DNA of 64,000 nucleotides, from the NCBI GenBank assembly GCA_029976805.1, contig JAPOLY010000004.1, positions 10,178-74,177 on the forward strand, read 5' to 3'. Made by a program: the position numbers and the translations under genes. Source of the stretch: a bacterium. GTDB taxonomy: Bacteria > Planctomycetota > UBA8108 > UBA1146. Positions 11,783-50,045 of this stretch are shown here, in pieces. A model generated the notes under the pieces. The model made no database searches. It saw only the letters and a program-made list of their open reading frames with translations, and was not told the DNA's origin. Position 1 is the stretch's first letter; each line of letters starts with the position of its first letter.

Positions 11783-11817
11783 TCCCCCTTCAGCAGATAT
11801 GAAGCCCGACTTCCGGC

Positions 11818-13482
11818 TCAGGGCCGTGGCTGGCCCTTCCATACCGTCAGATAATCGCGGCGAATCTGATCTTCGCCTTTGCCCCGGATCCAGACGTAGT
11901 TTCCGGTCACAATATCCATGTTCCCATCTCGATCGAGGTCATCGAGATGAACGGCAGAGTGAACCGGATTGCCCACCTCCAGGGTTTTAACATCCCACGC
12001 CTTGGAATCTCCGAGATTTTCCGCCCACACCAGCGAGTCCCACTGCCCCCATTCCTCCGATGAAATCTGCGGCATGAATGCAGCACCGACCACATCGTAA
12101 TCGCCGTCACCATCGAGATCACCGACAGCGGCGCGCTCACAACCGGGCAACAACAGGATTTCATGGAAACCCACAAATTCTTTCCCCACTCGCTCCAGCC
12201 AACGAACTCCATGAACCGGTTTGGGAGTGTGGTCATCGAGTGTGTCGCCATTGACCAACAGCAGGTCCCGATCCCCATCCCGGTCAATATCGACCCGCAT
12301 CAGATCGGAGGACCCCCAAGCCGCATGGGGAAGGCGCAAGAGTTCCTTCATGGTGAAACTGCCGTCGCCCTCGTTGGTAAACTGAACCAGAACTTCGTGC
12401 TCCTGTGAGAGCAGGGCGATAATATCTTCGTCCTCATCGTCATCGACGTCATCGAGGATCGCCGCGACAAATCCGTCGCGTTCATCGAGGGTTTTGACGA
12501 CGAACTGATCCTGGATGTTTTTCAACCACAACAGTTTCCCGGGACCACGAAAGCCGAACGCACAAACGACCATGTCCGTATCCCCATCCAGATCAAGGTC
12601 TGCCACGTCGATGTCACAGGCTCTTCCCAGATTCACGGGGACCGATACGGTTCTCCAGCCACCACCCTCTGAGAGGATGTAGGAAACACCACCCTTTTCT
12701 TCATCGGTAGGATTCATACCCCCGAGGCTGGCGACAAAAATGTCGAGCTTTCGATCATTGTTGTAGTCACCGTGACTGATCGCTGCGGGATAATTGAAAT
12801 CGACAGGACCCATGAAGGGTCGAAGCGCCCCCGAGTCGATGGATCCGTAAGGGATCGCCATCAACCGCCGGCTTCTCAACTCGGAAATCAAAATCCCCTG
12901 GGGAACTCCTCTTTCACCCTTGAGCAACATGATGTCTGAAACCGCGGGGATGCGTTCCTTTTCCAGCCCTCTGGGAGTCAGACCGATCACTTCAAACTGC
13001 AAGTCCTCCTCCGCGGGATGACGAACCGTCGCCAAAGATTCCGGGGCTTCCCTTTCATACCAATAAAGTGCGATGGCCAGCTCTTCGGGAGTCGGCGGTG
13101 GCTGATTCCAAGGCCCATTCATTTCTGCCATCGAAAGGATCACTTTTTCCCAGGCAGCCTTCGGAAGGGCATCCGCAGGCAACGGTGAATGACAGCGACT
13201 GCATGCTCCCATCACCAGATTCTCAGCTTGTGCGATCTGCTCCTCAGTGGGAGTCGGCAAGTCTGACCGCTTGAGTTGGGGTTCCATGAGAAAAGAGAGA
13301 GACTCTTCGGGGATGGTCGCTTTGGAAGGTGATGAGACGGATGTTTCCGTTTTGGAATCCGGCTCAGGAGTCTCAGAGACCTTCTCAACGGGCACTGCAG
13401 GTCTTTCAGCGGTGCAACCTGTCAAAACCCCACCGATGATCAAGAGATGGGTCAAAAACGATTTTTGGACCAATTTGATCAC
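11818..13482 (-). CDS. FG-GAP / ASPIC-UnbV-like repeat lipoprotein
   Basis: ORF 11818..13509. A GTG at 13482 gives MIKLVQKSFLTHLLIIGGVLTGC|TA, a clean lipoprotein signal; GTG at 13509 is the alternative. Multiple DxDxDGxxD Ca-binding FG-GAP-like repeats (DLDGDTDMVV, DIDRDGDRDLLLV, DLDGDGDYDVV, DLDRDGNMDIV). Confidence 0.7.
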   Translation of the reverse strand: MIKLVQKSFLTHLLIIGGVLTGCTAERPAVPVEKVSETPEPDSKTETSVSSPSKATIPEESLSFLMEPQLKRSDLPTPTEEQIAQAENLVMGACSRCHSPLPADALPKAAWEKVILSMAEMNGPWNQPPPTPEELAIALYWYEREAPESLATVRHPAEEDLQFEVIGLTPRGLEKERIPAVSDIMLLKGERGVPQGILISELRSRRLMAIPYGSIDSGALRPFMGPVDFNYPAAISHGDYNNDRKLDIFVASLGGMNPTDEEKGGVSYILSEGGGWRTVSVPVNLGRACDIDVADLDLDGDTDMVVCAFGFRGPGKLLWLKNIQDQFVVKTLDERDGFVAAILDDVDDDEDEDIIALLSQEHEVLVQFTNEGDGSFTMKELLRLPHAAWGSSDLMRVDIDRDGDRDLLLVNGDTLDDHTPKPVHGVRWLERVGKEFVGFHEILLLPGCERAAVGDLDGDGDYDVVGAAFMPQISSEEWGQWDSLVWAENLGDSKAWDVKTLEVGNPVHSAVHLDDLDRDGNMDIVTGNYVWIRGKGEDQIRRDYLTVWKGQPRP

Positions 13483-13640
13483 GTTCTGCTCGATGAATTC
13501 GTTGCTCACTGGAATCCCCCCCTAACTCAATCATAGAATAACACCCAGATTGAGGGCGTCATCCCCGGGTAAACTGAATCGACCCGTTAGAGGCCTGTCA
13601 TACCGGACCCCACGCACATTTTTGCCTTCGAGGAGGAACT

Positions 13641-15749: not shown

Positions 15750-16102
15750 TGGTGGAGGCGCCGGGAGTCGAACCCGGGTCCCGAAACGTTTCCCGCCGAG
15801 CTTCTACAGGCATAGTCCGTTCTTTAAAACCGAGGTCAGCTCCAACGGACAGGATCCGATCCACGGTCGCCAGTTCGATCTCGCCTCAAAGACCACTGGC
15901 AGGGTCTTCTTCGGCCAGTCCAGTAAAATGGCCCTCCGTCCGCAGCCCTGGACATGCTGCGGGGGAAGGGGCGCCAGTATTAGGCAGCCAGTGCGAAGTT
16001 GTTGTTCGCAGTCAAAACTTTTGCCGGTGTTTAAGGAGGCCTCCGGACAACCTCCACCTGCCACACGACGTTCCATCGTCCGGTCGAAACCGTTTCGCCC
16101 CC
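15750..16102 (-). ncRNA. ssrA: tmRNA (ssrA), tag peptide ANNNFALAA
   Basis: Minus-strand 5' GGGGGCGAAACGGUUUCGACCGGAC... and 3' ...GGGUUCGACUCCCGGCGCCUCCACCA. The tRNA-like acceptor stem has G3:U70 (alanine identity). Internal ORF gcg aac aac aac ttc gca ctg gct gcc taa = ANNNFALAA* at 15980-16009. Adjacent to smpB. Confidence 0.92.
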
Positions 16103-34878: not shown

Positions 34879-35982
34879 TCAGTTCTTCAATGACGGCGGT
34901 GGCGGAGAATCCCCGACCAACAGTCTCGTCATGCGACTCATATCGAGAAGCATCGGTACCGATGGATCATCACTGTTGAGGATCACTTCCGGGATATCGA
35001 GATTCTTGACCGCTTCCAATGCGAGCAGGATTCGGCCCCCGGTCGTATCGAGAGCCTGGTTGCGCAGGTCGTCGCGCAGGGCTTTCGACTTTTCGATGGC
35101 CAGATCCCCTTCCGCGATCAGGATATCCCTCTCTGCGTCACCCTCTGATCGGGTTTTGAGGTCGTAGAGCTGGGCTTCTGACGAGATCGTGGCGATTTCC
35201 ACCTCGAATGCCGAGCGTTTCTCCTGAATCGTTTGCTCCCAGTCCCGCTCCTTGGCAAGGACTGCTGCTGCAATCTGGCGCTTCTGGGTCTGGACCTTCT
35301 GATCTTCCTCGGCCTGCTTGGTCAAAGCCTCTTCCAGCTTTGATTCCTGACGCAACAACTGTTTATTCTGCAGTTTGCTTTCGTAGTCGGGAAGGAACTT
35401 GACCGCACGGATCAACAGGTCTTCCGGTTCGACATGGAAACTCGCCAGTTCCGATCGAAGAACGGTGAGGGTTTCAGTTGCCTGAACAGAACGCTTGTCC
35501 GTCAACTGGAGGTCTTCCGAGGTCAACTTCGCAAGTTCAGTGCGCAAAACATTCAGGACCTGCGAACGGACACGCTCCACATACGATAGACGCAAGCCCT
35601 CTTCCACCAACTTGTAACCGGATCCTTCGACGATTCGGTAGGTCAGTGAAACATCGATGGTCACGTTATTGTTATCTTTGGTTCGAAGCTCGAGGGGCGG
35701 CTGCCAATCCTCGATCCCCCGGGAAGTATTGCGGCTGTCCCGCAACTTTTCACCATCGACAAAGTGCAGGAAATGAGTCTGGCGCGGCAACAGGTGCCAG
35801 CGATGATAACTCGGAATGGCAAGAACCAGCCCGGTGCGAAAATCTTCCTGCACCACTCCCTTGCCCGGTCCGAAGACCACTTGTTTGACACCGATGGAAG
35901 CGGGTGGAACTTTCTTGGTCACGGCGGTCACCAGAAACAAACCCACGATCAAAATCGACAGAAAAACGGAGAGAAACTTCAT
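34879..35982 (-). CDS. SPFH/band-7 domain protein (HflC-like)
   Basis: 367 aa. N-terminal TM (MKFLSVFLSILIVGLFLVTAV), SPFH core, long coiled-coil C-terminus. Start overlaps the upstream SPFH gene's stop (ATGA). Confidence 0.8.
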   Translation of the reverse strand: MKFLSVFLSILIVGLFLVTAVTKKVPPASIGVKQVVFGPGKGVVQEDFRTGLVLAIPSYHRWHLLPRQTHFLHFVDGEKLRDSRNTSRGIEDWQPPLELRTKDNNNVTIDVSLTYRIVEGSGYKLVEEGLRLSYVERVRSQVLNVLRTELAKLTSEDLQLTDKRSVQATETLTVLRSELASFHVEPEDLLIRAVKFLPDYESKLQNKQLLRQESKLEEALTKQAEEDQKVQTQKRQIAAAVLAKERDWEQTIQEKRSAFEVEIATISSEAQLYDLKTRSEGDAERDILIAEGDLAIEKSKALRDDLRNQALDTTGGRILLALEAVKNLDIPEVILNSDDPSVPMLLDMSRMTRLLVGDSPPPPSLKN

Positions 35983-37208
35983 CGACGGTCTCCCTTCAAT
36001 TCGGGAATCCCCTGAGCCCCTGCGGACTGTCCCGCCGGGGGTAGCAAATGTTCGACTCGAACCGGTGAGGAATCCCTGCGATACGGCACCACACTGAACT
36101 TGACGCGCTGGAAGAGCCTGGAAAGTTCTTCTCGGACGAGGACTTCACCCTGACGCTCCAGTGCTGCCACACGGGCCAGCAAACCTTCAGCTTCCTTGCG
36201 GGCACTGTTTTCCAGAGCCCGTGCTTCCTGAGTCTTACGAGCCTCTTCTGCCTTGCCTGCGTTGATTTGGGTGATCTTGTAGGCATCCGCAGATTTCTCG
36301 ATCTGGACCCGCTCTGTTTCAGCATTGATCTTGTCTGCTTCGAGCTTTCCCAAAGCCTGTTCATATTCAGAGGCCTTGGTTCGCTCTGTTTCCGCGAGCT
36401 TGCGTTCCAGCTCATTGATCAGCTTGGCCTGCTCAATACGCAGTCGCTCCACCTCCTGGTTGGCGTTTTTGCGATCCTCGATGGCATTTTCGACCTTGAT
36501 ATCAAAACTGGGTTTCGGAGTGATGATCTGCAGAATCTCAATGCCGTGATTCTTGAGATACTCATTCAGCCGAGTCTTGGATTGATTCGTGGCGGTGGTG
36601 TAGTTGCTGGGGTCGGCAATATCCTCGGAGGAGTAGCGACCAAACTCATCACGAAGGACAGACCTTGCGAAAGCCCTGACCCAGTTACGCTTGAAGGCCT
36701 CACCGGGCCCACTGTCCTGTAACACCTTGGCTGCTTGGGAGGGGATCAACTGGTACTGAAGTGAAATCACATTGAATTTGAAGGAGGAACCATCGGAGGC
36801 CCTGACGGATAATTCACGGACATGGTTGTAATCAATGTTTCTTTTGCCCGTCATTTGGAACTCGTTGGGCGATTTGTCCATGACATACGCCTCGCTGAGC
36901 CAGGGCAGGAAGAAGGTCACTCCCGGAGTGGTGATCACTTCTTCTTCACCGGTCACATAATTGACGACCACCGCGACTTCCGTATCGGATATATCGACAA
37001 TTCCCGCTCTACCGGTGAGAATCAGAAACCCGAATACTCCCAAAATCAATGCCAGCAAAAATCCAGGTACCGCCATCGGGTGCAACTGGAAGTCGCTGCC
37101 TCCTGAATTACGTTTACCGCCGCCTCCCCCGGATTTTTTACCCGGTTTTTCCGGCGGTGGTGGTGGCCAACTGTCCGGAATATCATTTCCTGCAGGAACT
37201 GATGCCAT
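35979..37208 (-). CDS. SPFH/band-7 domain protein (HflK-like) with Pro/Gly-rich N-terminus
   Basis: 409 aa. PPPPPEKPGKKSGGGGGKRNSGG N-term, one TM, SPFH domain, coiled-coil C-terminus. Confidence 0.8.
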   Translation of the reverse strand: MASVPAGNDIPDSWPPPPPEKPGKKSGGGGGKRNSGGSDFQLHPMAVPGFLLALILGVFGFLILTGRAGIVDISDTEVAVVVNYVTGEEEVITTPGVTFFLPWLSEAYVMDKSPNEFQMTGKRNIDYNHVRELSVRASDGSSFKFNVISLQYQLIPSQAAKVLQDSGPGEAFKRNWVRAFARSVLRDEFGRYSSEDIADPSNYTTATNQSKTRLNEYLKNHGIEILQIITPKPSFDIKVENAIEDRKNANQEVERLRIEQAKLINELERKLAETERTKASEYEQALGKLEADKINAETERVQIEKSADAYKITQINAGKAEEARKTQEARALENSARKEAEGLLARVAALERQGEVLVREELSRLFQRVKFSVVPYRRDSSPVRVEHLLPPAGQSAGAQGIPELKGDRR

Positions 37209-39296: not shown

Positions 39297-39386
39297 GTTT
39301 CAGGATCCTCTCGTGCGTCAAACTTGTGCCATCGATCCTTCTGATCGGTAGCAGGCGGGCTCAGGTTATCATAACTTGGTCTCCAG

Positions 39387-39929
39387 ATGGGCCTAGATCG
39401 CCTTCGGACGGGGGAATGGGTGACAGAGAAGCCAAGAAAACGGAAACCGGGATTTACGGTCAGGGCTGCCGTCGAACGCGACGATGAAATCCTCTTTTTG
39501 CGGGCAAAAGACTCCAGCTCGTCCGCAGAGGATGGCTGCTGGTATTTCCTGCCGGGAGGTCATGTCGAACATGGCGAAACCCTCGAATCCGCACTATGCA
39601 GGGAGATCCGCGAAGAGACCGGTCTCGAAATCGAGGGTTTGCAACCCGCCTTTCTGCGGGAGTTTATCGCAGGCCGACACCAACGGCTTTCTCCCGAGAT
39701 GCCGCCCGAACTGCATGTGATCGCCCTGATCTACCGCTGCAAGGTTTCAGCGGGATCCCGGGAAAACTTTGTTCATGGTGTCGACGGTGTCCAGGCAACC
39801 GAAGATCTGGAGTGGATTCCCCGCTCAAGGCTGCAACACCTCGATATTCGCCCCCCCCATCTCAAAGTGGCCCTCGCCACTCCCATCGAGGCGGGAACCG
39901 GAGTCGATTATTGGGCAGAGGAAGACTGA
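39387..39929 (+). CDS. NUDIX hydrolase
   Basis: Nudix box GGHVEHGETLESALCREIREETGLEI. Start uncertain (ATG 39387 or internal GTG). Confidence 0.75.
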   Translation: MGLDRLRTGEWVTEKPRKRKPGFTVRAAVERDDEILFLRAKDSSSSAEDGCWYFLPGGHVEHGETLESALCREIREETGLEIEGLQPAFLREFIAGRHQRLSPEMPPELHVIALIYRCKVSAGSRENFVHGVDGVQATEDLEWIPRSRLQHLDIRPPHLKVALATPIEAGTGVDYWAEED

Positions 39930-40035
39930 TCTTTTCTCGACAAAGCGTTACTGGATGCTGTGGGAAGAGCGGCTAGGATTCGTGCACGCCAGAGTTGAAA
40001 GCCCGCGAACATCGCGGAGTGGATGAGGAGGCGGG

Positions 40036-41874
40036 TTGTCCCCGACCAAAAGCGCAAAGAAAAAGAGCGCGAAGAAGAGCACCAAAAAACCGACAAAAAA
40101 GGCGGCTAAAAAAGTCGCCAAAAAGAAGGCCACGAAAAAAGCGGCTCAAAAACGATCTACCGGAGGCAAGACCGGATCCCGATCGAAACCGGAGCAGGCG
40201 GATCTTTTCAGTCAAAGTTCCAAGGGTAAAGCCACCAAGGCCTCTCCTCCCCGATCTAAAAAGAAGATCAAAAAATCTCGTGAGACCTCTGGAGAGGATG
40301 CTTCTTCAGCCAACAAGGCTGAACAGTTGGCGGCCAAGCAGAAGGACATCTCCGTCAGTGAATTTTTCGCCAAGAATCGGCACCTGCTCGGTTTTGACAG
40401 CCCCGCCCGAGCTCTCCTGACCACCGTCAGGGAAGCAGTCGACAACTCTCTGGATGCCTGTGAAGAAGCAGAATACTTGCCGACAATTGTCGTTGAAGTC
40501 ACCGCTGCCTCCGAAGAACAACACACCATTCTTGTCCGGGATAATGGGCCAGGCATCGTTCCCGCACAGTTGCCCAAGATTTTTGGTCGACTGCTTTATG
40601 GATCGAAGTTCCATGCCCGCAAGCAGACCCGGGGTCAACAGGGAATCGGGATCAGTGCTGCAGGCATGTATGGAAACTTGACCACCGGCAAACCGATGGT
40701 GGTCACCAGCAGAACCTCCAGAAGAAAACCTGCCACCCAGGTCACCCTTGCCATCGACATGGCCAAAAACCAACCCGTGGTCAAAAAAGAGCGGGAAGTG
40801 GATGTCGATTGGGCCCATGGAACCGAAATCCATATCGAGTTGGAAGGGACCTACAAAAAAGGCAAACACTCCATCGATGCTTTCCTGGAACAGGTCTCCC
40901 TAGCCAACCCCCATGTTGAAATCCAATACAAAAACCCTGTAGACAAAGAGCCCATCATTTGGGAACGGGTGACGAAGAAACTTCCGGAAGCCCCCATGGA
41001 AATCCTGCCTCATCCACACGGAGTGGAACTGGGAATCCTCATGCAAATGATGAAGGACACCTCTTCCAGAACTGTCAGCGGATTCCTGTGCAGCGAGTTT
41101 TGTCGAATGACCCCGAATGTGGTGAAAAAGGTCAGTGAGCAAAGCGAAGAACTGGGCAAGTACATCGACACCGATCGTCACCCCCGCAGGCTGAGCAGCG
41201 CCGATGTCAAGATTCTTCACAAGTCCATCGAACGGACCAAGATGATGGCGCCGCCAACCAACTGCCTCTCCCCCATCGGAGAAGAATTGATGGCGAAAAC
41301 CCTCAGGCGCAACTTTGACCCCGAACTGGTCCTGACAGTCTCCCGTCAACCTGCCGTCTATCGAGGCAATCCTTTCCAGGTAGAGGCGGGGATCGCTTAT
41401 GGCGGAGAACTCCCCGGCGACGAGCTCGCCAGCATTTTCCGCTTTGCCAATCGGGTTCCCCTGCAATACGAACAGGGCGCATGCGCCATCACGCAATCGA
41501 TCATTTCGACCCCGTGGAAGAACTACGAGGTTCAACAGGCCCGGGGAGCATTGCCAACGGGTCCGTTGGCGATTCTGGTTCACATTGCGAGTGTGTGGGT
41601 TCCATTCACCTCGGAAAGCAAAAAAGCGGTCGCCGGATACGACGAGATCCTCAAGGAGATGCGCCTCGCTATCATGGAGGCGGGTCGAAAATTGGCGATC
41701 CACCTGCGCAAGAAACGTCGACTCGCGGACGCAGAGCGCAAAAAGGATTACATCAAGAAGTACATTCCCCAGATCGGCATCGCCCTCCAGGACATTCTGG
41801 AGCTGAGCGATAAACAGAGAACCGGAGCAGAGTCCAAGCTGGCCGATGTTCTCGAAAAAAGCCGGAAGATGTAA
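40036..41874 (+). CDS. DNA topoisomerase VI subunit B (GHKL ATPase) with lysine-rich N-terminal extension
   Basis: 612 aa; TTG start after GAGGAGG. Bergerat ATP-binding motifs ([49 protein letters not shown]). N-terminal about 95 aa is AKK/KKA-rich and H1-like. An alternative TTG near 40321 would remove the tail. Confidence 0.85.
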
Positions 41875-41884
41875 GGGAGACTGA

Positions 41885-43036
41885 ATGACAAAGAAAATCA
41901 CCCGGGCATACCTGGACAAGGTCCGCCGGGAAAACGCAAAAAAAGACAAGAAGACCATTTCCAGCATCGAGAATGCTGCAGATGACATTTACAAAAAGAT
42001 TCAGCGCAGGGGCAAACCCTTGATGCGTTTCCCAGTCCGTAGTCTCAGCAACGTCTCCTACGACAAGCGCAAGGGATACCTCGAGATCGGTCGAGCTCGC
42101 AAGGAACGCACCCTGACCGTCAACACCGTCAAGGGTTTCGCACAAACACTTCGCATGATGGGTCTTTCCCGGGAACTGGTGATCAACAACGATTTTGCCA
42201 CCAAGCGAGACGTCTATTACCAATCCAAAAATTGGGAAGAAGCCAAGTTTGACGACCAAACCGAATCGGACACGGTCATGGATGACATCGAAGCGCTCTT
42301 CTCAGTCGACGATGTCAGTCGTGAGCAGTTGCGCTTTGTTCCCGATGAACATGGCGGAGCTGTGGCTGGGGATCTGGTGGTCCTCGACCCCGACCTGGAA
42401 TCCGGAGAGATCGAACGCATTGACTGCACACGCTTCGGCAGTGGTGCCTATTCCATCCCCACTTCCGTCGAACATTTGAGCTTTGAAACTGGCGCCAAGT
42501 TCATCCTCGCTATCGAAACCGGAGGTGTTTTCCAAAGGCTTCAAAGTCACAAGTTCTGGAAAACCTCCAATTGCATTCTCATCAACATGGCGGGAGTCCC
42601 CACCCGCTCGACCCGCCGATTCATTCGCCGACTCAGCGAACAGGCCAAGATTCCGGTCTACGCCTTCGTCGATTGCGATCCCTACGGGATCTCCAATATT
42701 TATCGAACATTGAAGGTAGGATCGGGTAATGCCGCGCACATTAATCGCTTCTTCTGCGTTCCCAATGCCACCTATCTGGGAGTTACCCCTCAGGACATCA
42801 TTGATTACGAGCTTCCGACCCACCCCTTGAAGGATGTCGATATCAAACGTGCCAAGGACGCCCTCAAGAATGACCCCTTCTTCAAAAGCAAGAAGCAGTG
42901 GAAATCTGCGATTGAGCAATTGTTGTCGATGGGAGTCCGTGCGGAACAACAGGCTTTGGCGATGTGGGGCCTGAACTACGTCATTGAAGAATATTTGCCC
43001 CAAAAGCTGAAAAATCCGGGTAAATTCCTTCCCTGA
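41885..43036 (+). CDS. DNA topoisomerase VI subunit A (Spo11/Top6A; CAP + Toprim)
   Basis: 383 aa, 10 nt after Top6B. Toprim DxD (YAFVDCDPYGISI) and Top6A/Spo11 core motifs. Confidence 0.88.
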   Translation: MTKKITRAYLDKVRRENAKKDKKTISSIENAADDIYKKIQRRGKPLMRFPVRSLSNVSYDKRKGYLEIGRARKERTLTVNTVKGFAQTLRMMGLSRELVINNDFATKRDVYYQSKNWEEAKFDDQTESDTVMDDIEALFSVDDVSREQLRFVPDEHGGAVAGDLVVLDPDLESGEIERIDCTRFGSGAYSIPTSVEHLSFETGAKFILAIETGGVFQRLQSHKFWKTSNCILINMAGVPTRSTRRFIRRLSEQAKIPVYAFVDCDPYGISNIYRTLKVGSGNAAHINRFFCVPNATYLGVTPQDIIDYELPTHPLKDVDIKRAKDALKNDPFFKSKKQWKSAIEQLLSMGVRAEQQALAMWGLNYVIEEYLPQKLKNPGKFLP

Positions 43037-43065
43037 GAGCACGGCCGGCGTTTTGCCGCAGTTGC

Positions 43066-44409
43066 GTGAAGGAAGAGAGTTTGCTGATGCGTCTTCAGGC
43101 ATTTTTCCTAGGGGCACTTCTGTTGCTTTGCCCAGTGGTCATCTCGGCACAGCCTCAGGAATCCGGCCCCGATTCCGACCCTTTGGTCGTGATCGAAACA
43201 GGCTTTGAGTGGCTCCAGGATCGAATCCCCGAAGGGATGAGGTCAACAATCCTGTTTATGGAACAGTGGCAATGGTTGCTTCTGGCAGTGATTGCCGTTG
43301 CCGCCTGGCTGATTCAAAAAATCAGCTCGCATATCGGTGGTTCCATTCTGAATTCCATCCTGGCAAGAGTCGGTCAGTCTGAAAAGACGACTGCCGTGAT
43401 CACATCGGTGGGTAAATCACTGGGATGGTTTGCATCAGCACTGACTGTCGACCTGTTGGCACCAGCACTCCAATTTTCACAATTTGGAGTTTCACTCATG
43501 GACGTGGTCGTGCGTTCGCTCGCAACCATCGGTGGCCTGCTTTTGGCCTATCGCCTGGTTGATCTTCTCGGTGCTCGCATGGAGGAGGCCGCCAGTCTTT
43601 CCGAGAGCAAACTGGACGACCAGCTGGCTCCCATGATTCGTAAAAGCCTGAAGTTTCTCGTCACCATTGGAGCAGTGATATACCTGATCCAGAGTACGGG
43701 AGAAGATGTGATGCCCCTTGTCACCGGTCTCGGTGTGCTCGGTATCGGTGTCAGTCTTGCTGCCAAGGACACCTTCGCCAATCTTTTTGGTTCCATCACG
43801 GTATTCACCGATCGTCCCTTCCAGCTCGGCGATTGGGTCAAGGTCGGAGGGATTCAGGGGGTCGTTGAGGAGATCGGCTTCCGTTGCACCCGGATCCGCA
43901 CTTTTGAGAGTTCTCTGGTCAGTGTGCCCAACTCGGAACTGGTCAACGGCGTCATCGACAACATGGGCCAACGAAACTACCGCAGATTCAAAACCATGGT
44001 TGGTCTCCGCTACGAAACCCCCGCGGACAAAATTGAAGCGTTTTGTGAAGGCGTCAAAGCGATCGCAGCTGCTCAGGAGAAGATTGAAACAGAGACGGTC
44101 AGAGCCGCTCTGGTGGATTTCGGGGCATCCAGCCTGGACGTGCTCGTCAACGTTCGCTTGATCGTTGCGGATTACACCGAAGAACTTCAGACCAAACAGC
44201 GCTTCCTTCTTGAGGTGATTCGTCTTGCCGAGGAATTGGAAGTCGGGTTCGCTTTCCCATCAACAAGCCTTTACGTCGAGTCCACTCCGGAGCACCCCTT
44301 CCCTGCAGAAAAAGTGCCCTCCGGAGATCAGCTCCGACAACAAGTGGAAAAGTTTGGCCCCGGAGGAGATCTTTCGAGAACTTCCGGAAGTGGAAACTTC
44401 GCTCCCTGA
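43066..44409 (+). CDS. mechanosensitive ion channel (MscS family) protein
   Basis: 447 aa. N-terminal signal/TM segments and MscS pore-helix/beta-domain motif (GVLGIGVSLAAKDTFANLFGS...FQLGDWVKVGGIQGVVEEIGFRCTRIRT). Alternative start at 43087. Confidence 0.85.
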   Translation: MKEESLLMRLQAFFLGALLLLCPVVISAQPQESGPDSDPLVVIETGFEWLQDRIPEGMRSTILFMEQWQWLLLAVIAVAAWLIQKISSHIGGSILNSILARVGQSEKTTAVITSVGKSLGWFASALTVDLLAPALQFSQFGVSLMDVVVRSLATIGGLLLAYRLVDLLGARMEEAASLSESKLDDQLAPMIRKSLKFLVTIGAVIYLIQSTGEDVMPLVTGLGVLGIGVSLAAKDTFANLFGSITVFTDRPFQLGDWVKVGGIQGVVEEIGFRCTRIRTFESSLVSVPNSELVNGVIDNMGQRNYRRFKTMVGLRYETPADKIEAFCEGVKAIAAAQEKIETETVRAALVDFGASSLDVLVNVRLIVADYTEELQTKQRFLLEVIRLAEELEVGFAFPSTSLYVESTPEHPFPAEKVPSGDQLRQQVEKFGPGGDLSRTSGSGNFAP

Positions 44410-44422
44410 AGAGAATGAAGAT

Positions 44423-45253
44423 CTAGATCAGTCGTTTCAAAAGTGACTGCAAAAGCAGCTTGGGCTGATCCACGTGCAACCAGTGGCCGGCGTTCGGCAA
44501 GACTTCCAGTGTATGCCGAGGCCCATCACTCTCGCACAGTGATTTCATACGGGATCGGGTCGACTCTCCCACCACTTTCGATCGCTCCCCCACGATGAAG
44601 TCGATGCGTTCCACACCTTCATGGGAGAGACACGGCCATGCGTCAAACTCGTGGTGGCTCAACAAGAGATTTTCAATACGGTCCAGATTGAGTGGCAGGT
44701 GCAGGGTTTCGCCTTCCCTACGAAGATTTTTTCCGACCCAACCGGCAATCTCAGGTCGAAAACCGAATCTTCCCATGTAATCGACGAACTCGCCTCGGGT
44801 AGTAAACGCTGCGGGTGCTGCCCGAAGTGCATCCATCAACGTCAGAACCTGAAAGTCCGCTCTGGATTTCCCGGACATCAACAATGGGCCAGGATCCGCA
44901 TCCAGGACGAACGCCTGACGAATCGATGACTGCCGAAGAGCGAGCAGGATGCCAATCTTGGAACCGAAGGAGTGCCCTGCCACCGCATGAATCTCACCGT
45001 CAAAAGTCTCCATCATCTCTTCAAGATCGTTGATACAGGAATCCAGTTGATCCGGGGGGCTTCCTGACTCGGATCTACCATGCAGCCTGTGATCAGGAAC
45101 CAGCACTCCCAAATCAGGCCGGGCTTGGGCCAGATCCCGGGCAAATCCCGCCCAATTGCCCCCAGCACCCAGAATTCCGTGCAACAAAAGGACCCATCTG
45201 TCTGGGCTCGCTCCTTGGGCTACTCTCGTCATGAGGTGCAATTTCGCTGTCAT
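44423..45253 (-). CDS. alpha/beta hydrolase fold protein
   Basis: ORF 44423..45340 trimmed to MTAKLHLMTRV with AGGAG RBS. HG oxyanion motif (LLLHGILG) and GHSFG nucleophile elbow. Confidence 0.75.
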   Translation of the reverse strand: MTAKLHLMTRVAQGASPDRWVLLLHGILGAGGNWAGFARDLAQARPDLGVLVPDHRLHGRSESGSPPDQLDSCINDLEEMMETFDGEIHAVAGHSFGSKIGILLALRQSSIRQAFVLDADPGPLLMSGKSRADFQVLTLMDALRAAPAAFTTRGEFVDYMGRFGFRPEIAGWVGKNLRREGETLHLPLNLDRIENLLLSHHEFDAWPCLSHEGVERIDFIVGERSKVVGESTRSRMKSLCESDGPRHTLEVLPNAGHWLHVDQPKLLLQSLLKRLI

Positions 45254-45402: not shown

Positions 45403-48231
45403 ATGGGTAATCAAGATAAAAACCCCGATCAAAATAGCCAAAAGTCGCGGAGTTCCCGACCGGAGCCCGTTCACTCCGGATTGCGCCCCTGGCTCGCCGC
45501 GGTCTTTGGTCTGTTTGCCCTGTTGGGAATCAACTCTTTCTACCTGTTGGCGGTCACGGTCGCTGAAAAGGTTCTCAAAAGTCAGTTCCAGGATTCTTTT
45601 TACCAGTGGATGTTCCTCGTCCATCTGGTTCTCGGTGTTTTGATCATTTTACCTTTTGTGGTTTTTGGCTTCTGGCACCTGAAGCGATCTTGGTCGCACC
45701 CCAACCGACGGGCAGTCAAAGCGGGTATGGGCCTTTTCATTGCCAGCTTGCTTCTCTTGATTTCAGGAGTACTGCTGACCCGGATTGAAGGAATTCTCGA
45801 GATCCGGTCCCCCGCCTGGAGAACCATCTTCTATGCCACTCATGTTGCTACACCGATGGTTACGATTTGGCTCTTTGTTCTCCACAGGCTTGCAGGAGTG
45901 CCGATTCGCTGGGCAGTCAGTTATCGCTGGAGCTTCGCTGGACTCTTGTTCGTCCTCCTGATGCTCGTCTGGCATCAGTACTCGGTCCCCCCCGGAATGA
46001 CGCCTGCTGCAGGAGACCAATATTTTGAGCCTTCACTTGCACGGACCAGTGACGGCAAGTTCATCGAGGCCCACCGACTGATGCGAGATGACTCTTGTCG
46101 AGAGTGCCACCCTGACGTTCATTCCCGTTGGTCCGAATCTGCACACCGATTCAGTTCATTCAACAACCCTGCTTATTTGGCAAGTGTCAAAAACACTCGT
46201 GATTTCCTCATGGAGAGGGATGGCGACGTCCATGCCTCCCGATTCTGTGCTGGCTGCCATGACCCGGTTCCATTCTTCAGTGGCGCATTTGATGATCCGG
46301 ACTTCGACATGGATAACCACCCCACTGCCCATGCCGCCATCACATGTACCGTCTGTCATGCCATTGAGTCTGTCCCGGGTCCGAGAGGAAATGGCGAATA
46401 TGTGATCGGACAGCCTGAGCTCTATCCGTTTGCCATGAGCGAGGACCCGCTTCTCAAATGGGTCAATCGTCAACTGATCAAGGCCAAGCCTGCGTTCCAC
46501 AAAAAAACCTACCTCAAGCCTCTGCACGAACAGGCAGAGTTTTGCGGCTCGTGCCACAAGGTTCATATCCCCGAAGAACTCAATCATTACAAATGGCTCC
46601 GAGGGCAGAACCACTACGATTCGTGGCTTCTCAGCGGGGTCAGTGGGCACGGCGTCGCTTCCTTCTATTACCCCGCGCAGGCTGAGAACGATTGCAATGG
46701 CTGTCACATGCCGGCGATGCCCAGTACCGATTTTGGTGCAAAAGACATCACCGGTACGGGAATCCTTTCTGTGCATGACCACCTGTTCCCGGGAGCCAAT
46801 ACGGCAATGCGAGCCATGGTCGGGACCAGTGAATCTTCTCTGGAAGTGCATCGGAAGTTCCTCGAAGGCTCTATCGACGTCGATATCTTCGGCATTCGCC
46901 GTGGAGACGATGTGGATGCTCCCCTTGAGGCCCCGATTCATCCGAGGGTTCCTGCAATCGAGCCTGGCGAAACCATCCTTGTGCAAACAGTCCTGCGAAC
47001 GATGGGAATGGGTCACCATTTCACCGAGGGGACCGCCGACTCCAATCAGACCTGGGTCTCTATGGAAGTCTTTTTGGACGGCGAACCGATCGCTTCCAGC
47101 GGGCTTCTTGATGAAAAGGGAGTTCTGGACCCCTGGTCCCACATGATGAACGCCCTTGTTCTTGACCGGGAAGGGAATCGGATCCACGAGCGCAATGTCG
47201 AAGACATCTTTATTGCGCTCTACAACCACCAGATTCCTCCGGGCGCGGCGGATTCTCTCCACTATCGCCTCGACGTTCCGAATGCACCGGGATCAAAGTT
47301 GACGGTACGAGCCAAAGCCCTCTACAGAAAATTTGACACTCACTTCCTGAGCCTGTTCATGGATGGTGAGCGAAATGATCTTCCTGTGGTGACATTGGGT
47401 GAGGACGAAGTGACCTTTGTCATCGGTGGCCCCGAAGTCGAGATCGATATCGAGGAGAGCAAGCCCACCTGGATGCGCTGGAATGATTATGGAATCGGCA
47501 TGCTCCGCAAGGGATCCAAAGGCGCAGTTCGAGGAGAGTTGGTGACGGCCATCTCTGCCTTCGAGGAGGTGACTCGCCTCGGACGACCTGATGGGGCCAT
47601 GAACAAGGCAAGAGCACTGATCAAGGCGGGAAGACTGGATGAAGCGGCCCTGTCTCTGGACAAAGCCGCTCAGCACGATCCTCCTCCCCCACCCTGGAGC
47701 CTTGATTGGTTTGGCAGCCTTGTGAACCGGGAAAACGGTTACTACGACGCCGCCCTGACCACCCTTCTGCGTCTCTACGAAACCCGTTATCCGGGTGCTG
47801 CGGAGAGAGGCTTTGATTTTTCCAGAGACGTGCGGTTGCTCAATGAACTGGGAACGGTCTGCTTTGCCATCGCCCGTCAAAGAGAAGAAGGCAAATCGGA
47901 AAATCTCCAGATCGCCCTCAACTGGTTCGACAAGGTCTTGGTAGAAGACCCGGAAAATACCTCCGCTCATTGGAATCTTGCCCAGATCCACGACCTGTTG
48001 GCGCTGGATCAAAATCAGGGCGCCGATTCCCCATCCGATTCGGTCGACCACGCTGCCAAGGCCAATTTCCACAGAAGCGAGCACTCTCGATACAAAGTCG
48101 ACGACAATGCCCGGGATGTTGCCGTTTCCGCCCACCGGTCCAATAATCCACCCGCAAATGCCTCAGCCGAAGCGATTGTGATTTACCCTCTTCAGCCGAT
48201 AGAATCCGGTGAAGAAGAGGGCAAGAAGTAA
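45403..48231 (+). CDS. membrane-anchored pentaheme c-type cytochrome with C-terminal TPR region
   Basis: 942 aa. About 4 N-terminal TM helices. Five CxxCH motifs (CRECH, CAGCH, CTVCH, CGSCH, CNGCH). C-terminal TPR-like repeats. Confidence 0.75.
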   Translation: MGNQDKNPDQNSQKSRSSRPEPVHSGLRPWLAAVFGLFALLGINSFYLLAVTVAEKVLKSQFQDSFYQWMFLVHLVLGVLIILPFVVFGFWHLKRSWSHPNRRAVKAGMGLFIASLLLLISGVLLTRIEGILEIRSPAWRTIFYATHVATPMVTIWLFVLHRLAGVPIRWAVSYRWSFAGLLFVLLMLVWHQYSVPPGMTPAAGDQYFEPSLARTSDGKFIEAHRLMRDDSCRECHPDVHSRWSESAHRFSSFNNPAYLASVKNTRDFLMERDGDVHASRFCAGCHDPVPFFSGAFDDPDFDMDNHPTAHAAITCTVCHAIESVPGPRGNGEYVIGQPELYPFAMSEDPLLKWVNRQLIKAKPAFHKKTYLKPLHEQAEFCGSCHKVHIPEELNHYKWLRGQNHYDSWLLSGVSGHGVASFYYPAQAENDCNGCHMPAMPSTDFGAKDITGTGILSVHDHLFPGANTAMRAMVGTSESSLEVHRKFLEGSIDVDIFGIRRGDDVDAPLEAPIHPRVPAIEPGETILVQTVLRTMGMGHHFTEGTADSNQTWVSMEVFLDGEPIASSGLLDEKGVLDPWSHMMNALVLDREGNRIHERNVEDIFIALYNHQIPPGAADSLHYRLDVPNAPGSKLTVRAKALYRKFDTHFLSLFMDGERNDLPVVTLGEDEVTFVIGGPEVEIDIEESKPTWMRWNDYGIGMLRKGSKGAVRGELVTAISAFEEVTRLGRPDGAMNKARALIKAGRLDEAALSLDKAAQHDPPPPPWSLDWFGSLVNRENGYYDAALTTLLRLYETRYPGAAERGFDFSRDVRLLNELGTVCFAIARQREEGKSENLQIALNWFDKVLVEDPENTSAHWNLAQIHDLLALDQNQGADSPSDSVDHAAKANFHRSEHSRYKVDDNARDVAVSAHRSNNPPANASAEAIVIYPLQPIESGEEEGKK

Positions 48232-50045
48232 TGACCGATCCTTCCAATATTCCAGACTCTCCTGATCCCGAAAATCAGGACGACGAAGTCATTGGGCATG
48301 CATTCCAAAAAAGTATTCGAATCCTTGGAGTCCTTGCTCTTCTCGCAGCCGGATTCTGGTTTTTGTCTAACTACGAGCCTTCCGCAGAACCGGTCGAATC
48401 TGGACCCGAAGTACCGATCCGGCCCAGAGGTCATGACGGAACAGTCAGCGCTCCCCCTCTCCCTTTCAAAGACATCACTCTCAATGCAGGCATCGATTTC
48501 ACCCACGACGATGGAGCCCGAGGCAAAAAGTTGCTCCCCGAAACGATGGGAAGCGGCTGCGCATTTGTCGACGTCGACTCCGATGGGGACAGTGATATCC
48601 TTCTCGCCAGTGGCCGTCCGTGGAAATGGACCAGCGAAAAACCTGCGAATTCCACACTTCGATTGTGGCTGAACGACGGTAACGGTCAATTTGTCGAAGC
48701 CAGCCGGGAATGGCGACTCGAGATCGACGCTTACTGCACAGGATTGGCCGTGGGTGACATCGACGGTGACGGAGATCAGGATGTTTTCGTCGCGGCAGTG
48801 GGCTCGGACCTGCTCCTGATGAATCAGGGGGACCACTTCAGTGTTGCAGATCAAGCTGGAGTTTCCGGAGGCCCCGACGCCTGGTCGAGCAGTGCAGGCT
48901 TCTTCGATGCGGATGCTGATGGAGATCTGGATCTTTTTGTTTGCCAGTATGTTCAATGGTCTCCAGAGAAAGACCTCGAAGTCGATTATCGACTCACTGG
49001 TGTTGGCAGGGCCTATGGCCCCCCCACCAACTTTGAGGGAAGTCCGTGCCGCCTTCACCTCAACGATGGTTCCGGAACCTTTAAAGATTTCAGCGTTCAG
49101 GCAGGACTGCAGACTCCGGATCTCTCCAAGGCGACCAAAGCTCTTGCGATGTTGACGACTGACTTCGACCGCGACGGCGACATCGATGTCATCGTCGCCA
49201 ATGACACCACACGAAACTTTGTATTCAGAAACGATGGGCAGGCCCGTTTCGAAGAAGTCGGAGTCGAATGTGGATTGGCATACGACGCCAATGGATCTGC
49301 AACGGGAGCAATGGGACTGGACCTTTGCGATTACCGTAATGATGGCGGATTGGGAATTGCCGTAGCCAACTTTTCGGCAGAGATGACGGGTCTGTATCGC
49401 TCGATGCCCGCTTCGGAGCTTTTTATCGACGAATCGGTGAATGAAGGGATTGGTCCCCCCAGTCGAAAGGCACTTTCCTTTGGACTGCTCTTTTTTGATG
49501 TCGATCTGGATGGTCGCCAGGATCTCATTCAGGCCAACGGGCATCTCGAGGAAGAGATTGCCACAGTTCAACCGGGCCAAGAATACCGACAGCAGGCACA
49601 ACTTTTCTGGAATCGTGGTCCCGGTGCTGGTTGCTATGTGGAGGTTGCTGGAGAAAAGACCGGTGATCTGTCGATTCCGGCGATTGGCCGGGGCCTCGCC
49701 AGTGCAGACATCGATGGGGATGGTGACTTGGACCTTCTGTTGACCCAGGTGGGTGAACCGGTCCGTCTGCTCAGAAACGATCAAGGGACGGGACACCAAT
49801 GGATTCGCATCCGCACTGAAGGAATCTCGCCCGGCAGTTGGATTGAATGTCGTCAGGGAGAATCAGTCCAAAGGCAAATGATCGGGACAACCCGCTCTTA
49901 TCTGAGCCAGTGCGAAGCAGTGGCCACCTTTGGGCTGGGGAAATCCACAGAAATCCCCGTTATCACTGTTCTTGAGCAGGGAAAATCTGCCTACACCTTT
50001 GAGCCCGAGGGATTGAATCGCACTATTTCAATACCCGTCAAGTGA
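48231..50045 (+). CDS. ASPIC/UnbV-CRTAC1-like FG-GAP repeat protein
   Basis: 604 aa. ATG overlaps the TAA of the cytochrome gene (TAATG). Repeated Ca-binding FG-GAP motifs (DVDSDGDSDILL, DIDGDGDQDVFV, DADADGDLDLFV, DFDRDGDIDVIV, DIDGDGDLDLLL). Confidence 0.8.
   Translation: MTDPSNIPDSPDPENQDDEVIGHAFQKSIRILGVLALLAAGFWFLSNYEPSAEPVESGPEVPIRPRGHDGTVSAPPLPFKDITLNAGIDFTHDDGARGKKLLPETMGSGCAFVDVDSDGDSDILLASGRPWKWTSEKPANSTLRLWLNDGNGQFVEASREWRLEIDAYCTGLAVGDIDGDGDQDVFVAAVGSDLLLMNQGDHFSVADQAGVSGGPDAWSSSAGFFDADADGDLDLFVCQYVQWSPEKDLEVDYRLTGVGRAYGPPTNFEGSPCRLHLNDGSGTFKDFSVQAGLQTPDLSKATKALAMLTTDFDRDGDIDVIVANDTTRNFVFRNDGQARFEEVGVECGLAYDANGSATGAMGLDLCDYRNDGGLGIAVANFSAEMTGLYRSMPASELFIDESVNEGIGPPSRKALSFGLLFFDVDLDGRQDLIQANGHLEEEIATVQPGQEYRQQAQLFWNRGPGAGCYVEVAGEKTGDLSIPAIGRGLASADIDGDGDLDLLLTQVGEPVRLLRNDQGTGHQWIRIRTEGISPGSWIECRQGESVQRQMIGTTRSYLSQCEAVATFGLGKSTEIPVITVLEQGKSAYTFEPEGLNRTISIPVK

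Follow-up and report, generated by a model that had tools for sequence, protein, structure and literature searches.

How could a DNA topoisomerase VI (Topo VI), an enzyme for which an archaeal origin is favoured, be fitted to the replication machinery of a bacterium, and which proteins of its host might it work with? The role and partners of bacterial Topo VI were posed as a question in a 2024 survey, and a motif in the locus described here makes that question testable. The locus is a pair of adjacent genes, top6B (40036..41874, TTG start) and top6A (41885..43036, ATG start), on a 64,000-nucleotide stretch of planctomycete DNA (UBA8108, UBA1146; contig JAPOLY010000004.1 of assembly GCA_029976805.1), hereafter the window, to which all coordinates refer; all features of the two genes lie on the plus strand. 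They encode the B subunit (612 amino acids) and the A subunit (383 amino acids) of what is almost certainly a functional, native Topo VI, its activity being deduced from intact catalytic residues. The B subunit begins with a lysine-rich N-terminal extension, residues 1 to ~93 (40036..40314), in which a short island, QADLF (residues 54-58; 40195..40209), fits the published definition of the motif that binds the bacterial sliding clamp, DnaN. We propose, tentatively, that by means of this tail an enzyme moved from archaea to bacteria may have been adapted to the bacterial replisome.

An initial annotation, made from the letters and the open reading frames (ORFs), had described a Topo VI operon of B and A subunits in a bacterial genome, and both ORFs are found exactly where it placed them, with full catalytic signatures. 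The identity of the B subunit is drawn from hidden Markov models (HMMs), matches to PDB structures, an AlphaFold2 (AF2) model and Foldseek comparisons, and the domain order is disordered tail, GHKL ATPase, H2TH and transducer, without an immunoglobulin (Ig)-like C-terminal domain. The GHKL/Bergerat ATPase domain (residues ~125-252; 40408..40791; PF02518 and PF13589) gives a HATPase_c match of 3e-11, and the transducer domain (residues 406-569; 41251..41742) matches Topo-VIb_trans (PF09239) at 6e-58 over the full length of the model. In NCBIfam the protein reaches 648 bits with NF003218, the model for DNA topoisomerase VI subunit B, where 274 are required, and 515 bits with TIGR01052, where 381 are required. 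Methanosarcina mazei Top6B (2q2e_B) is matched at 1e-137 with 43-45% identity, and the alignment, unbroken from residue 95 to 590, covers the H2TH region. The H2TH domain sets Topo VI-B apart from the Topo VIB-like partners of Spo11. The B subunit had been described beforehand as a GHKL ATPase with Bergerat motifs, and the N-box (E133/N137/D140), the G1 box (D169-N-G-P-G173) and the G2 box (G200-QQ-G-I-G205) are all present, invariant in an alignment of 73 sequences and aligned to the corresponding boxes of M. mazei Top6B. Equally invariant among the 73 homologues are W494, Y497, S526, E527 and K529 of the transducer; W494-Y497 form the WKxY element, which contacts DNA in M. mazei Top6 (PMC13040014), and K529 is the switch lysine in SESKK. 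The AF2 model is confident over the core and superimposes on M. mazei Top6B over 498 aligned columns with a TM-score of 0.70; Foldseek finds Top6B structures at 1e-56 to 1e-38, as against 1e-12 to 1e-9 for GyrB, ParE and MutL.

The A subunit is comprised of a 5Y-CAP/winged-helix domain, an all-beta domain and a Toprim domain. It exceeds the cut-offs of all three Pfam families that it matches, namely TP6A_N (PF04406; 1.3e-15), Topo_VI_alpha (3.5e-15) and TOP6A-Spo11_Toprim (PF21180; 4.4e-60), and together with the Topo-VIb_trans match these bear out the HMM comparison by which the initial annotation had proposed to check its reading. Top6A of Methanocaldococcus jannaschii (1d3y) is matched at 2e-106, and the two proteins are 54.5% identical over 301 residues. 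The alignment has no gaps across the catalytic region, where R108 and Y112 of the window protein fall on R99 and Y103 of M. jannaschii, and Y103 has been named as the catalytic tyrosine of the latter (PMC7671362); the codon for Tyr112 lies at 42218..42220, and the tyrosine-bearing CAP domain, the loss of which would have spoken for a mere relic, is therefore in place. The description of a Spo11-like subunit with a Toprim DxD also stands, as the Toprim domain (residues 206-375; 42500..43009) contains E211 in AIETGG and D263-C-D265 in DCDPYG, both motifs aligning to 1d3y. One observation weighs against the assignment: the six NCBIfam Top6A models all match strongly yet all fall below their curated cut-offs (best 459 bits against 675; the model named Topo VI-A 275 against 424), these being equivalogs of narrow archaeal sub-families.

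The names attached to these models deserve a remark of their own. Most of the NCBIfam Top6A models (the PRK04342 sub-families) are called DNA topoisomerase IV subunit A, and in many records of metagenome-assembled genomes (MAGs) Top6A is labelled as the A subunit of topoisomerase IV (Topo IV), as for the homologues P0123, P0124, P0129 and P0136. Through such naming, genomes with Topo VI alone could be counted as having Topo IV in automated surveys.

The most unusual part of the protein lies ahead of its catalytic core. Archaeal Top6B structures align to the window protein only from residue 95-100 onward. The ~93 residues that precede this point are about 34% lysine plus arginine and match no Pfam family, and they were modelled by AF2 with a predicted local distance difference test (pLDDT) of ~40 (36-44 over residues 1-100), the first helix appearing at residue 94; the whole tail is predicted to be disordered. 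That it is real and translated we consider very probable. The TTG is the first start codon after a stop and is preceded, at a distance of 4 nt, by a strong Shine-Dalgarno (SD) sequence, GAGGAGG (40025..40031, read directly from the sequence), and two related loci (L002 and L006) keep the same AGGATGAGGAGGCGGG-TTG context before top6B. The 612-residue form has been called independently in NCBI, ENA and Logan records, and the reading frame of the tail is open in all relatives despite many insertions and deletions, every one of which is in-frame. The tail has nevertheless changed quickly: relatives that share 83-94% identity in the core share only 36-50% in the tail. The DNA of the tail contains imperfect 12-13-nt repeats of the AAAAAAGGCGGCT type.

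Tails of this kind are widespread. Nearly all bacterial Top6B homologues possess one, of 25-165 residues and 20-40% lysine plus arginine; two distant bacterial loci (L004 and L005) have a tail-less Top6B. A control set of mostly short N-termini was provided by a library of representatives at 50% identity, without taxonomy, in which 65 of the 81 distant sequences with a delimitable N-terminus have fewer than 35 residues before the Top6B core. The tail is an architectural feature specific to bacteria and is without counterpart in the solved archaeal Top6B structures.

Within this rapidly changing sequence, and ~45 residues ahead of the ATP gate, QADLF forms a conserved island, recognised from the motif definition and from a profile of relatives. 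Its variants include QADLF, QGGLF, QASLF, QLSLF, QLDLF and QSDLF; in a profile of 30 non-redundant tails the glutamine and the phenylalanine are found in all 30 and the leucine in 28, with A, L, S or G at the second position, D, S or G at the third, and [D/S]-E-P following. Its placement varies: in the same 30 tails the island is separated from the core by 34-67 residues and from the N-terminus by 6-75. Of 66 non-redundant tails, 26 match the loose pattern Qx[SDGN][LMI]F, when composition-preserving shuffles would lead one to expect 0.03, and some lineages have the perfect clamp consensus, QLSLF or QLDLF. Elsewhere in the bacteria a different form takes its place. In a clade labelled Candidatus Eisenbacteria, 31 of the 84 non-redundant tails contain QLEVxF, where 0.10 would be expected, and the hexapeptide usually lies 10-20 residues from the Top6B N-terminus, whilst tails labelled Myxococcales or Deltaproteobacteria start with Q-x-[S/A]-F-x-F. 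When 149 non-redundant tails were pooled, the published 5-mer expression matched 21 (0.33 expected) and the published 6-mer expression 10 (0.31 expected), the latter rising to 53 (0.56 expected) if valine is allowed at position 4; one or other form is present in 74 of the 149 bacterial tails, where about one would be expected by chance. The motif is 3-10 times as dense in the tails as in the cores of the same proteins, and it was found in only two of the 81 distant Top6B N-termini. In the AF2 model the island has a pLDDT of ~40, no secondary structure and no intramolecular docking. Its immediate flanks are neutral or acidic, with a glutamate at -1 in the window and S/Q after it, and some 12 residues around it are without lysine.

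The motif bound by the bacterial clamp was defined by Dalrymple et al. (2001) as QL[S/D]LF, as cited in PMC9690074 and PMC11417375, and a 2024 review gives it a new definition, either Q-phi-x-[L/M]-[F/L] or the longer Q-phi-x-[L/M]-x-[F/L] (PMC11139829). QADLF fits the first, 5-mer, form. The examples from the alpha subunit of Escherichia coli DNA polymerase III (Pol III), an internal QADMF and a C-terminal QVELEF (PMC11139829), are close to those found here: the window motif differs from QADMF by one residue, and the QLEVxF of the Eisenbacteria resembles QVELEF. In competition assays the change of methionine to leucine in a QADMF peptide raised its inhibitory activity (PMC11139829). Established clamp partners such as Hda, Pol III alpha, Pol II and Pol IV likewise have a Q-phi-x-[L/M](x)[F/L] motif of 5-6 residues in a disordered terminus, the motif of Hda lying in a disordered N-terminus (PMC11139829). 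They differ from Top6B of the window in that flanks of known clamp motifs are mostly acidic and the context here is strongly basic, and in that clamp binding by Top6B is a prediction from sequence. That two published classes of clamp motif should occupy the same place in different phyla is hard to explain unless the same pocket is targeted. A PCNA-type PIP (PCNA-interacting protein) box was also considered for the island and rejected, as the aromatic pair required after the motif is absent.

It appears that a Top6B tail with a clamp-type motif has not been described in the literature found. Topoisomerases go unmentioned in the 2024 review of the beta clamp (PMC11139829), the table of a 2022 review includes none among the bacterial clamp partners and has them only among the partners of PCNA (PMC9690074), and no paper connecting Topo VI with the clamp of bacteria was found in the open-access literature.

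How might such an enzyme act? From what is known of the family, the ATP-operated GHKL gate of Top6B would capture one DNA duplex, which would then be passed through a transient double-strand break, linked to Tyr112 and made by the Top6A dimer of an A2B2 enzyme; in this way Topo VI would here relax supercoils and, preferentially, decatenate. By analogy with its relatives, the enzyme of the window most likely does the job of the Topo IV that is missing in this phylum, since Topo VI is a preferential decatenase (PMC8837201) and since bacteria of the superphylum Planctomycetota-Verrucomicrobiota-Chlamydiota (PVC) that have it are published as possessing gyrase and lacking Topo IV (PMC11302465). 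The polycationic segments of the tail could add non-specific affinity for DNA, as do the lysine repeats of Streptomyces TopA, which stabilise DNA binding and raise processivity (PMC5714199). QADLF, in turn, would dock on the DnaN clamps left behind on newly replicated DNA, so that the tail would serve as a flexible tether of ~45 residues between those clamps and the gate by which the T-segment enters. Because the N-terminus of Top6B is situated at this ATP gate, such a tether would place the enzyme on sister-duplex crossings and might thereby concentrate a decatenase on the precatenanes behind the fork. The association of a bacterial decatenase with the replisome is not without precedent: a dnaX mutation prevents the association of Topo IV with the replisome (PMC12435782), and ParC is recruited by MukB (PMC3950513).

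Our confidence is not the same for each part of this proposal. We regard the explanation as a whole, a native Topo VI operon with a disordered tail that tethers it to the clamp, as evenly balanced between acceptance and doubt, the function of the tail being its conjectural element. That the island binds DnaN is nearly as finely poised. The evolutionary formulation, in which an archaeal Topo VI would have been adapted to the bacterial replisome through polycationic DNA-binding repeats and a DnaN motif (QxDLF in the Planctomycetota, QLEVxF in the Eisenbacteria and Q-x-S/A-F-x-F in the Myxococcota), is offered as a tentative suggestion that leans a little towards doubt. If it is true, Topo VI would be the first topoisomerase known as a client of the beta clamp, and a horizontally acquired archaeal enzyme would have been wired into the bacterial replisome by the gain of a short linear motif. 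This would give a mechanistic account of the replacement of Topo IV by a decatenase from archaea, would bear on the coupling of decatenation to replication in lineages without Topo IV, and would answer the conjecture of Forterre and Gadelle (2009) that partners specific to each domain restrict how topoisomerases are exchanged across domains.

The guanine-plus-cytosine (GC) content of top6B (0.536) and top6A (0.516) may be set beside 0.546 +/- 0.021 in the other genes of the window, and GC at third codon positions is 0.63 for the top6 genes and 0.59 +/- 0.03 elsewhere. With the remainder of the window as its training set, the codon-adaptation index is 0.79 and 0.81 for the two genes as against 0.754 +/- 0.019 for the others; if anything, the top6 genes are better adapted than their neighbours. 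The comparison of GC and codon usage with neighbouring genes, which had been proposed beforehand, gives a native composition. A neighbourhood of ten genes is retained in three related genomes (L006, L002 and L001), in which Top6B is 89, 82 and 78% identical and Top6A, the best-conserved protein of the syntenic block, is 97, 94 and 86% identical, flanking genes ranging from 46 to 89%. No mobile-element or defence genes were found near the operon, PADLOC giving only the remote similarity of a Toprim domain to JetD. Native composition, conserved synteny and the lack of mobile or defence genes together favour an old, vertically inherited locus, and what we have here is a chromosomal housekeeping locus under strong purifying selection and not a recent acquisition. 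The initial annotation had left a choice between horizontal acquisition and an ancient planctomycete trait; the second part is upheld and recent acquisition is not, the evidence favouring a vertical trait that is old in the lineage and whose ultimate origin is archaeal. With regard to that origin, Top6A is closest to a Methanococcales-type structure, that of M. jannaschii, which fits the published bacterial cluster adjoining the Methanococcales; this affinity is based on the strength of the PDB match and on the published tree (PMC11302465).

The reading that competes most closely with clamp tethering accepts a genuine Topo VI and disputes only the purpose of its tail, which would be no more than a non-specific polycationic anchor to DNA or the nucleoid, similar to H1 or to TopA, the QxDLF island then serving otherwise, as a site for SMC, ParB or a lineage-specific partner, as a regulatory strap or as a degron. 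We think this a possible reading, though one rather less probable than not. It would account for a tail that is one-third lysine and arginine and encoded by imperfect repeats, and lysine repeats alone are known to enhance the binding of a topoisomerase to DNA (PMC5714199); moreover, some lineages have lysine-rich tails without the motif on the A subunit, and Topo IV too is recruited by a partner other than the clamp, MukB (PMC3950513). Several further points weigh against clamp binding. Known clamp motifs are mostly flanked by acidic residues, because the surroundings of the pocket are positive (PMC11139829), so that the strongly basic wider tail is an atypical context; roughly one in two of the non-redundant tails lacks any match to the published expressions; and position 2 is G, S or E in some close relatives (QGGLF, QEDLF), which in E. 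coli peptides would weaken binding, a change of leucine to alanine costing ~40-fold (PMC11139829). In general, clamp motifs are short and degenerate, and predictions of this kind are prone to false positives. An anchor would nonetheless not require an island that matches the clamp motif specifically, keeping Q, L and F with D or S at position 3, that reads exactly QLSLF or QLDLF in some lineages, and that is replaced at the same place in a different phylum by the other class of clamp motif. The strap is unlikely in its own right, since AF2 docks nothing within the molecule and the spacing varies from 34 to 67 residues from the core and from 6 to 75 from the N-terminus.

The remaining alternatives question the tail, or the enzyme, itself. 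It is conceivable that the tail is an artefact of annotation, translation starting instead at the in-frame TTG of Leu98, which could serve as an alternative start, so that Top6B would be of archaeal length and the upstream frame an untranslated leader. Two close homologues (P0042 and P0043, both JGI calls) have indeed been called at a downstream start, as proteins of 515-517 residues beginning MEMAKKQKD or MAKKQKD; the start called in the window is TTG and not ATG, and an open frame can persist by chance in A-rich DNA of low complexity. Chance would not, however, be expected to preserve the SD sequence and TTG in related loci, to confine every insertion and deletion to the frame, to keep an amino-acid motif in tails of such low identity or to yield the 612-residue form in independent sets of calls, and we judge an artefact to be very unlikely. 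More improbable still is a recently acquired mobile or defence module, be it a topoisomerase VIII (Topo VIII), a Mini-A, or a Toprim nuclease of the Wadjet/MksG or Gabija type. Top6A does show a weak PADLOC match to JetD (25 bits, 1.7e-6), and Topo VIII is known from integrated elements of some Planctomycetes (PMC7671362), but the JetD similarity is a known remote Toprim homology (PMC13040014), the composition is native and the synteny conserved, and there are no SMC, Mks, Jet, integrase or plasmid genes nearby. The two separate subunits have the full architecture of Topo VI and not the fused form of Topo VIII, and a Topo VIII or Mini-A identity was rejected on architecture and context. Lastly, the B subunit might have been a GHKL protein of the MutL, Hsp90 or histidine-kinase type and the A subunit a non-catalytic, Spo11-like relic, an outcome that the initial annotation had named as the one that would overturn it. 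Models for MutL and histidine kinases from NCBIfam do give marginal matches of 15-19 bits. These lie 160-970 bits below their cut-offs, whereas those of the Top6B models are exceeded by 134-374 bits; MutL itself scores 18.8 bits (cut-off 180) against the 648 of Topo VI-B. With the transducer, switch lysine, H2TH region and WKxY all present in B, and R108/Y112, the glutamate and DxD in A, a relic has a negligible probability, and the MutL/Hsp90 reading of B is refuted by HMM scores, structure matches, invariant motifs and Foldseek alike.

The arrangement of the two genes is simple. The TAA stop of top6B (41872-41874) is followed directly by the SD sequence of top6A, GGGAG (41875..41879, read directly), and 5 nt later by the ATG, so that the 10-nt gap between the co-oriented genes holds the ribosome-binding site. 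From this placement it follows that top6B and top6A form a translationally coupled operon, and their adjacent pairing is present in all related loci. Scans of 39300-44600 were uninformative, with one sigma-70 promoter-like site (2.1 expected) and eight sites resembling intrinsic terminators (7.0 expected). In the 2-kb bin 40001-42000 the AT skew reaches +0.27, while every other bin stays between -0.15 and +0.15; the high value is likely due to the coding strand of top6B being rich in lysine codons (AAA/AAG), especially in the tail (GC 0.49).

Lysine-rich tails are not restricted to the B subunit. Six A-subunit homologues (P0178, P0183, P0189, P0192, P0201 and P0228) have N-terminal tails of this type, 19-67 residues in length, and none of the six contains the clamp-type motif; such A-subunit tails, for example (KKKTT)n, occur in other bacterial lineages including one labelled Myxococcota. 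Among the distant Top6B representatives, P0252, P0255, P0257, P0277, P0293, P0313 and others are 1000-1570 amino acids long and match the query in two or three split stretches, suggesting large insertions, possibly inteins, in the GHKL or transducer regions.

The distribution of close homologues adds a number of observations. Those nearest to the window are labelled Planctomycetota, Planctomycetia or Planctomycetes, and the exact Top6A of the window is encoded, in the same gene order, in several MAG assemblies at NCBI (e.g., GCA_041256765.1). Top6A is still 75-80% identical in lineages labelled as other phyla, an unusually slow rate of change for a horizontally derived enzyme. Top6 genes of the planctomycete type, with tail and motif, are also found in bins labelled Bacillota (P0033 and P0157) and uncultured Rickettsiales (L003), their identity to the window being 65-78% for Top6B and 86% for Top6A; mis-binning of the contigs is probable. 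At one distant locus (L004; CAXGOF010000230.1, 160-2158) the two subunits are discordant, the tail-less Top6B being 54% identical and the first 117 residues of Top6A 92% identical, which may reflect an exchange of subunits, extreme conservation of A or a chimeric contig.

Upstream of top6B are genes for an ArsP-type permease, two SPFH/Band-7 proteins, an arginase-family enzyme, a hypothetical protein and a NUDIX hydrolase, and downstream of top6A are those for an MscS channel, an alpha/beta hydrolase, a cytochrome/TPR protein and an FG-GAP/ASPIC protein. The NUDIX gene (39387-39929, plus strand), directly 5' of top6B and conserved in synteny, has a PADLOC match to PDC-S07 (E 1.2e-12) that probably represents generic NUDIX similarity. 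The two SPFH/Band-7 genes (34879-37208, minus strand) overlap by 4 nt (35979-35982) and are conserved as a pair in relatives, the upstream member having an N-terminus rich in proline, glycine and lysine. The rest of the window includes a DUF1800/DUF1501 pair, a tricorn-like protease, an aldolase, a sigma-54 activator, a MacB-HlyD-OEP efflux system, five tRNAs and one transfer-messenger RNA (tmRNA). Pairs of TPR and FG-GAP/ASPIC proteins occur twice, at 9815-13509 and 45403-50045; the genes of one pair converge, those of the other share a single base and include a TPR partner with a region resembling multihaem cytochrome c554, and the pair looks like a recurring two-gene module. The tmRNA is full-length (15750-16102, minus strand; Rfam 161.6 bits, E 6.8e-64, model positions 1-374 of 374), and as ARAGORN, which is also capable of finding tmRNAs, reported only the five tRNAs, it may be of an unusual or permuted form. 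A Pfam scan of 42 ORFs of the window, all of them except one at least 200 amino acids long, revealed neither gyrase nor Topo IV nor dnaN, and within that set the earlier remark that the window has no gyrase or Topo IV genes holds.

The discovery of Topo VI in a planctomycete is not in itself new. Forterre and Gadelle (2009) knew the enzyme from three bacterial genomes (PMC2647321), and by 2024 Allen & Maxwell could report it from 17 bacterial families, including five of the PVC group: the Pirellulaceae, Lacipirellulaceae, Thermoguttaceae, Sedimentisphaeraceae and Anaerohalosphaeraceae (PMC11302465). The presence of Topo VI in the Planctomycetota is already published, and the core of the initial annotation is known biology. 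The same survey inferred that the enzyme had passed from archaea to bacteria on at least two occasions, one of the bacterial clusters adjoining the Methanococcales; it found gyrase in all the bacteria with Topo VI and, outside the Pseudomonadota and Terrabacteria, no Topo IV, and it proposed Topo VI as a substitute for the missing decatenase (PMC11302465). It makes no mention of an N-terminal extension or of a clamp motif, using "clamp" only for the GHKL clamp and "N-terminal" only for the GHKL domain of a Plasmodium protein. The published PVC enzymes, such as those of Pirellula staleyi, Lacipirellula parvula and Thermogutta terrifontis, belong to the same phylum-level group as the window and share with it the affinity of the A subunit to the Methanococcales and the lack of an Ig-like C-terminal domain; by analogy, their pattern of gyrase without Topo IV is to be expected of the host of the window as well.

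Comparison with the archaeal enzymes (M. mazei 2q2e and 9o0g, Saccharolobus shibatae 2zbk and M. jannaschii 1d3y) reveals the same two subunits and the same order of domains, whereas the ~93-residue lysine-rich tail and QADLF have no counterpart in those structures. At the other end of the protein the difference is reversed: M. mazei Top6B has an Ig-like C-terminal domain (PMC11302465) which is absent from the window protein, the alignment ending at archaeal residue 496 of 621 with only ~22 residues of the query to follow. The KGRR loop of the archaea reads KKGKH in the window. Topo IV (ParC/ParE) likely fills the same role, the removal of precatenanes and catenanes, but is a type IIA enzyme with a non-homologous A subunit and three gates, and it is recruited through ParC's C-terminal domain and not through a clamp-binding motif. 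The nearest parallel to the tail is found in the actinobacterial TopA of Streptomyces and Mycobacterium, which likewise has a disordered, low-complexity, lysine-rich appendage of the AKK type; TopA, however, is a type IA enzyme whose tail is C-terminal and has no clamp-type motif embedded in it, whereas that of the window is N-terminal. Finally, Topo VIII, Mini-A and the MksG/JetD nucleases share with the window Top6A a homologous module of Toprim and 5Y-CAP domains, but they are fused or A-only proteins of mobile elements and defence operons, whilst the Topo VI of the window retains a separate, full-length B subunit.

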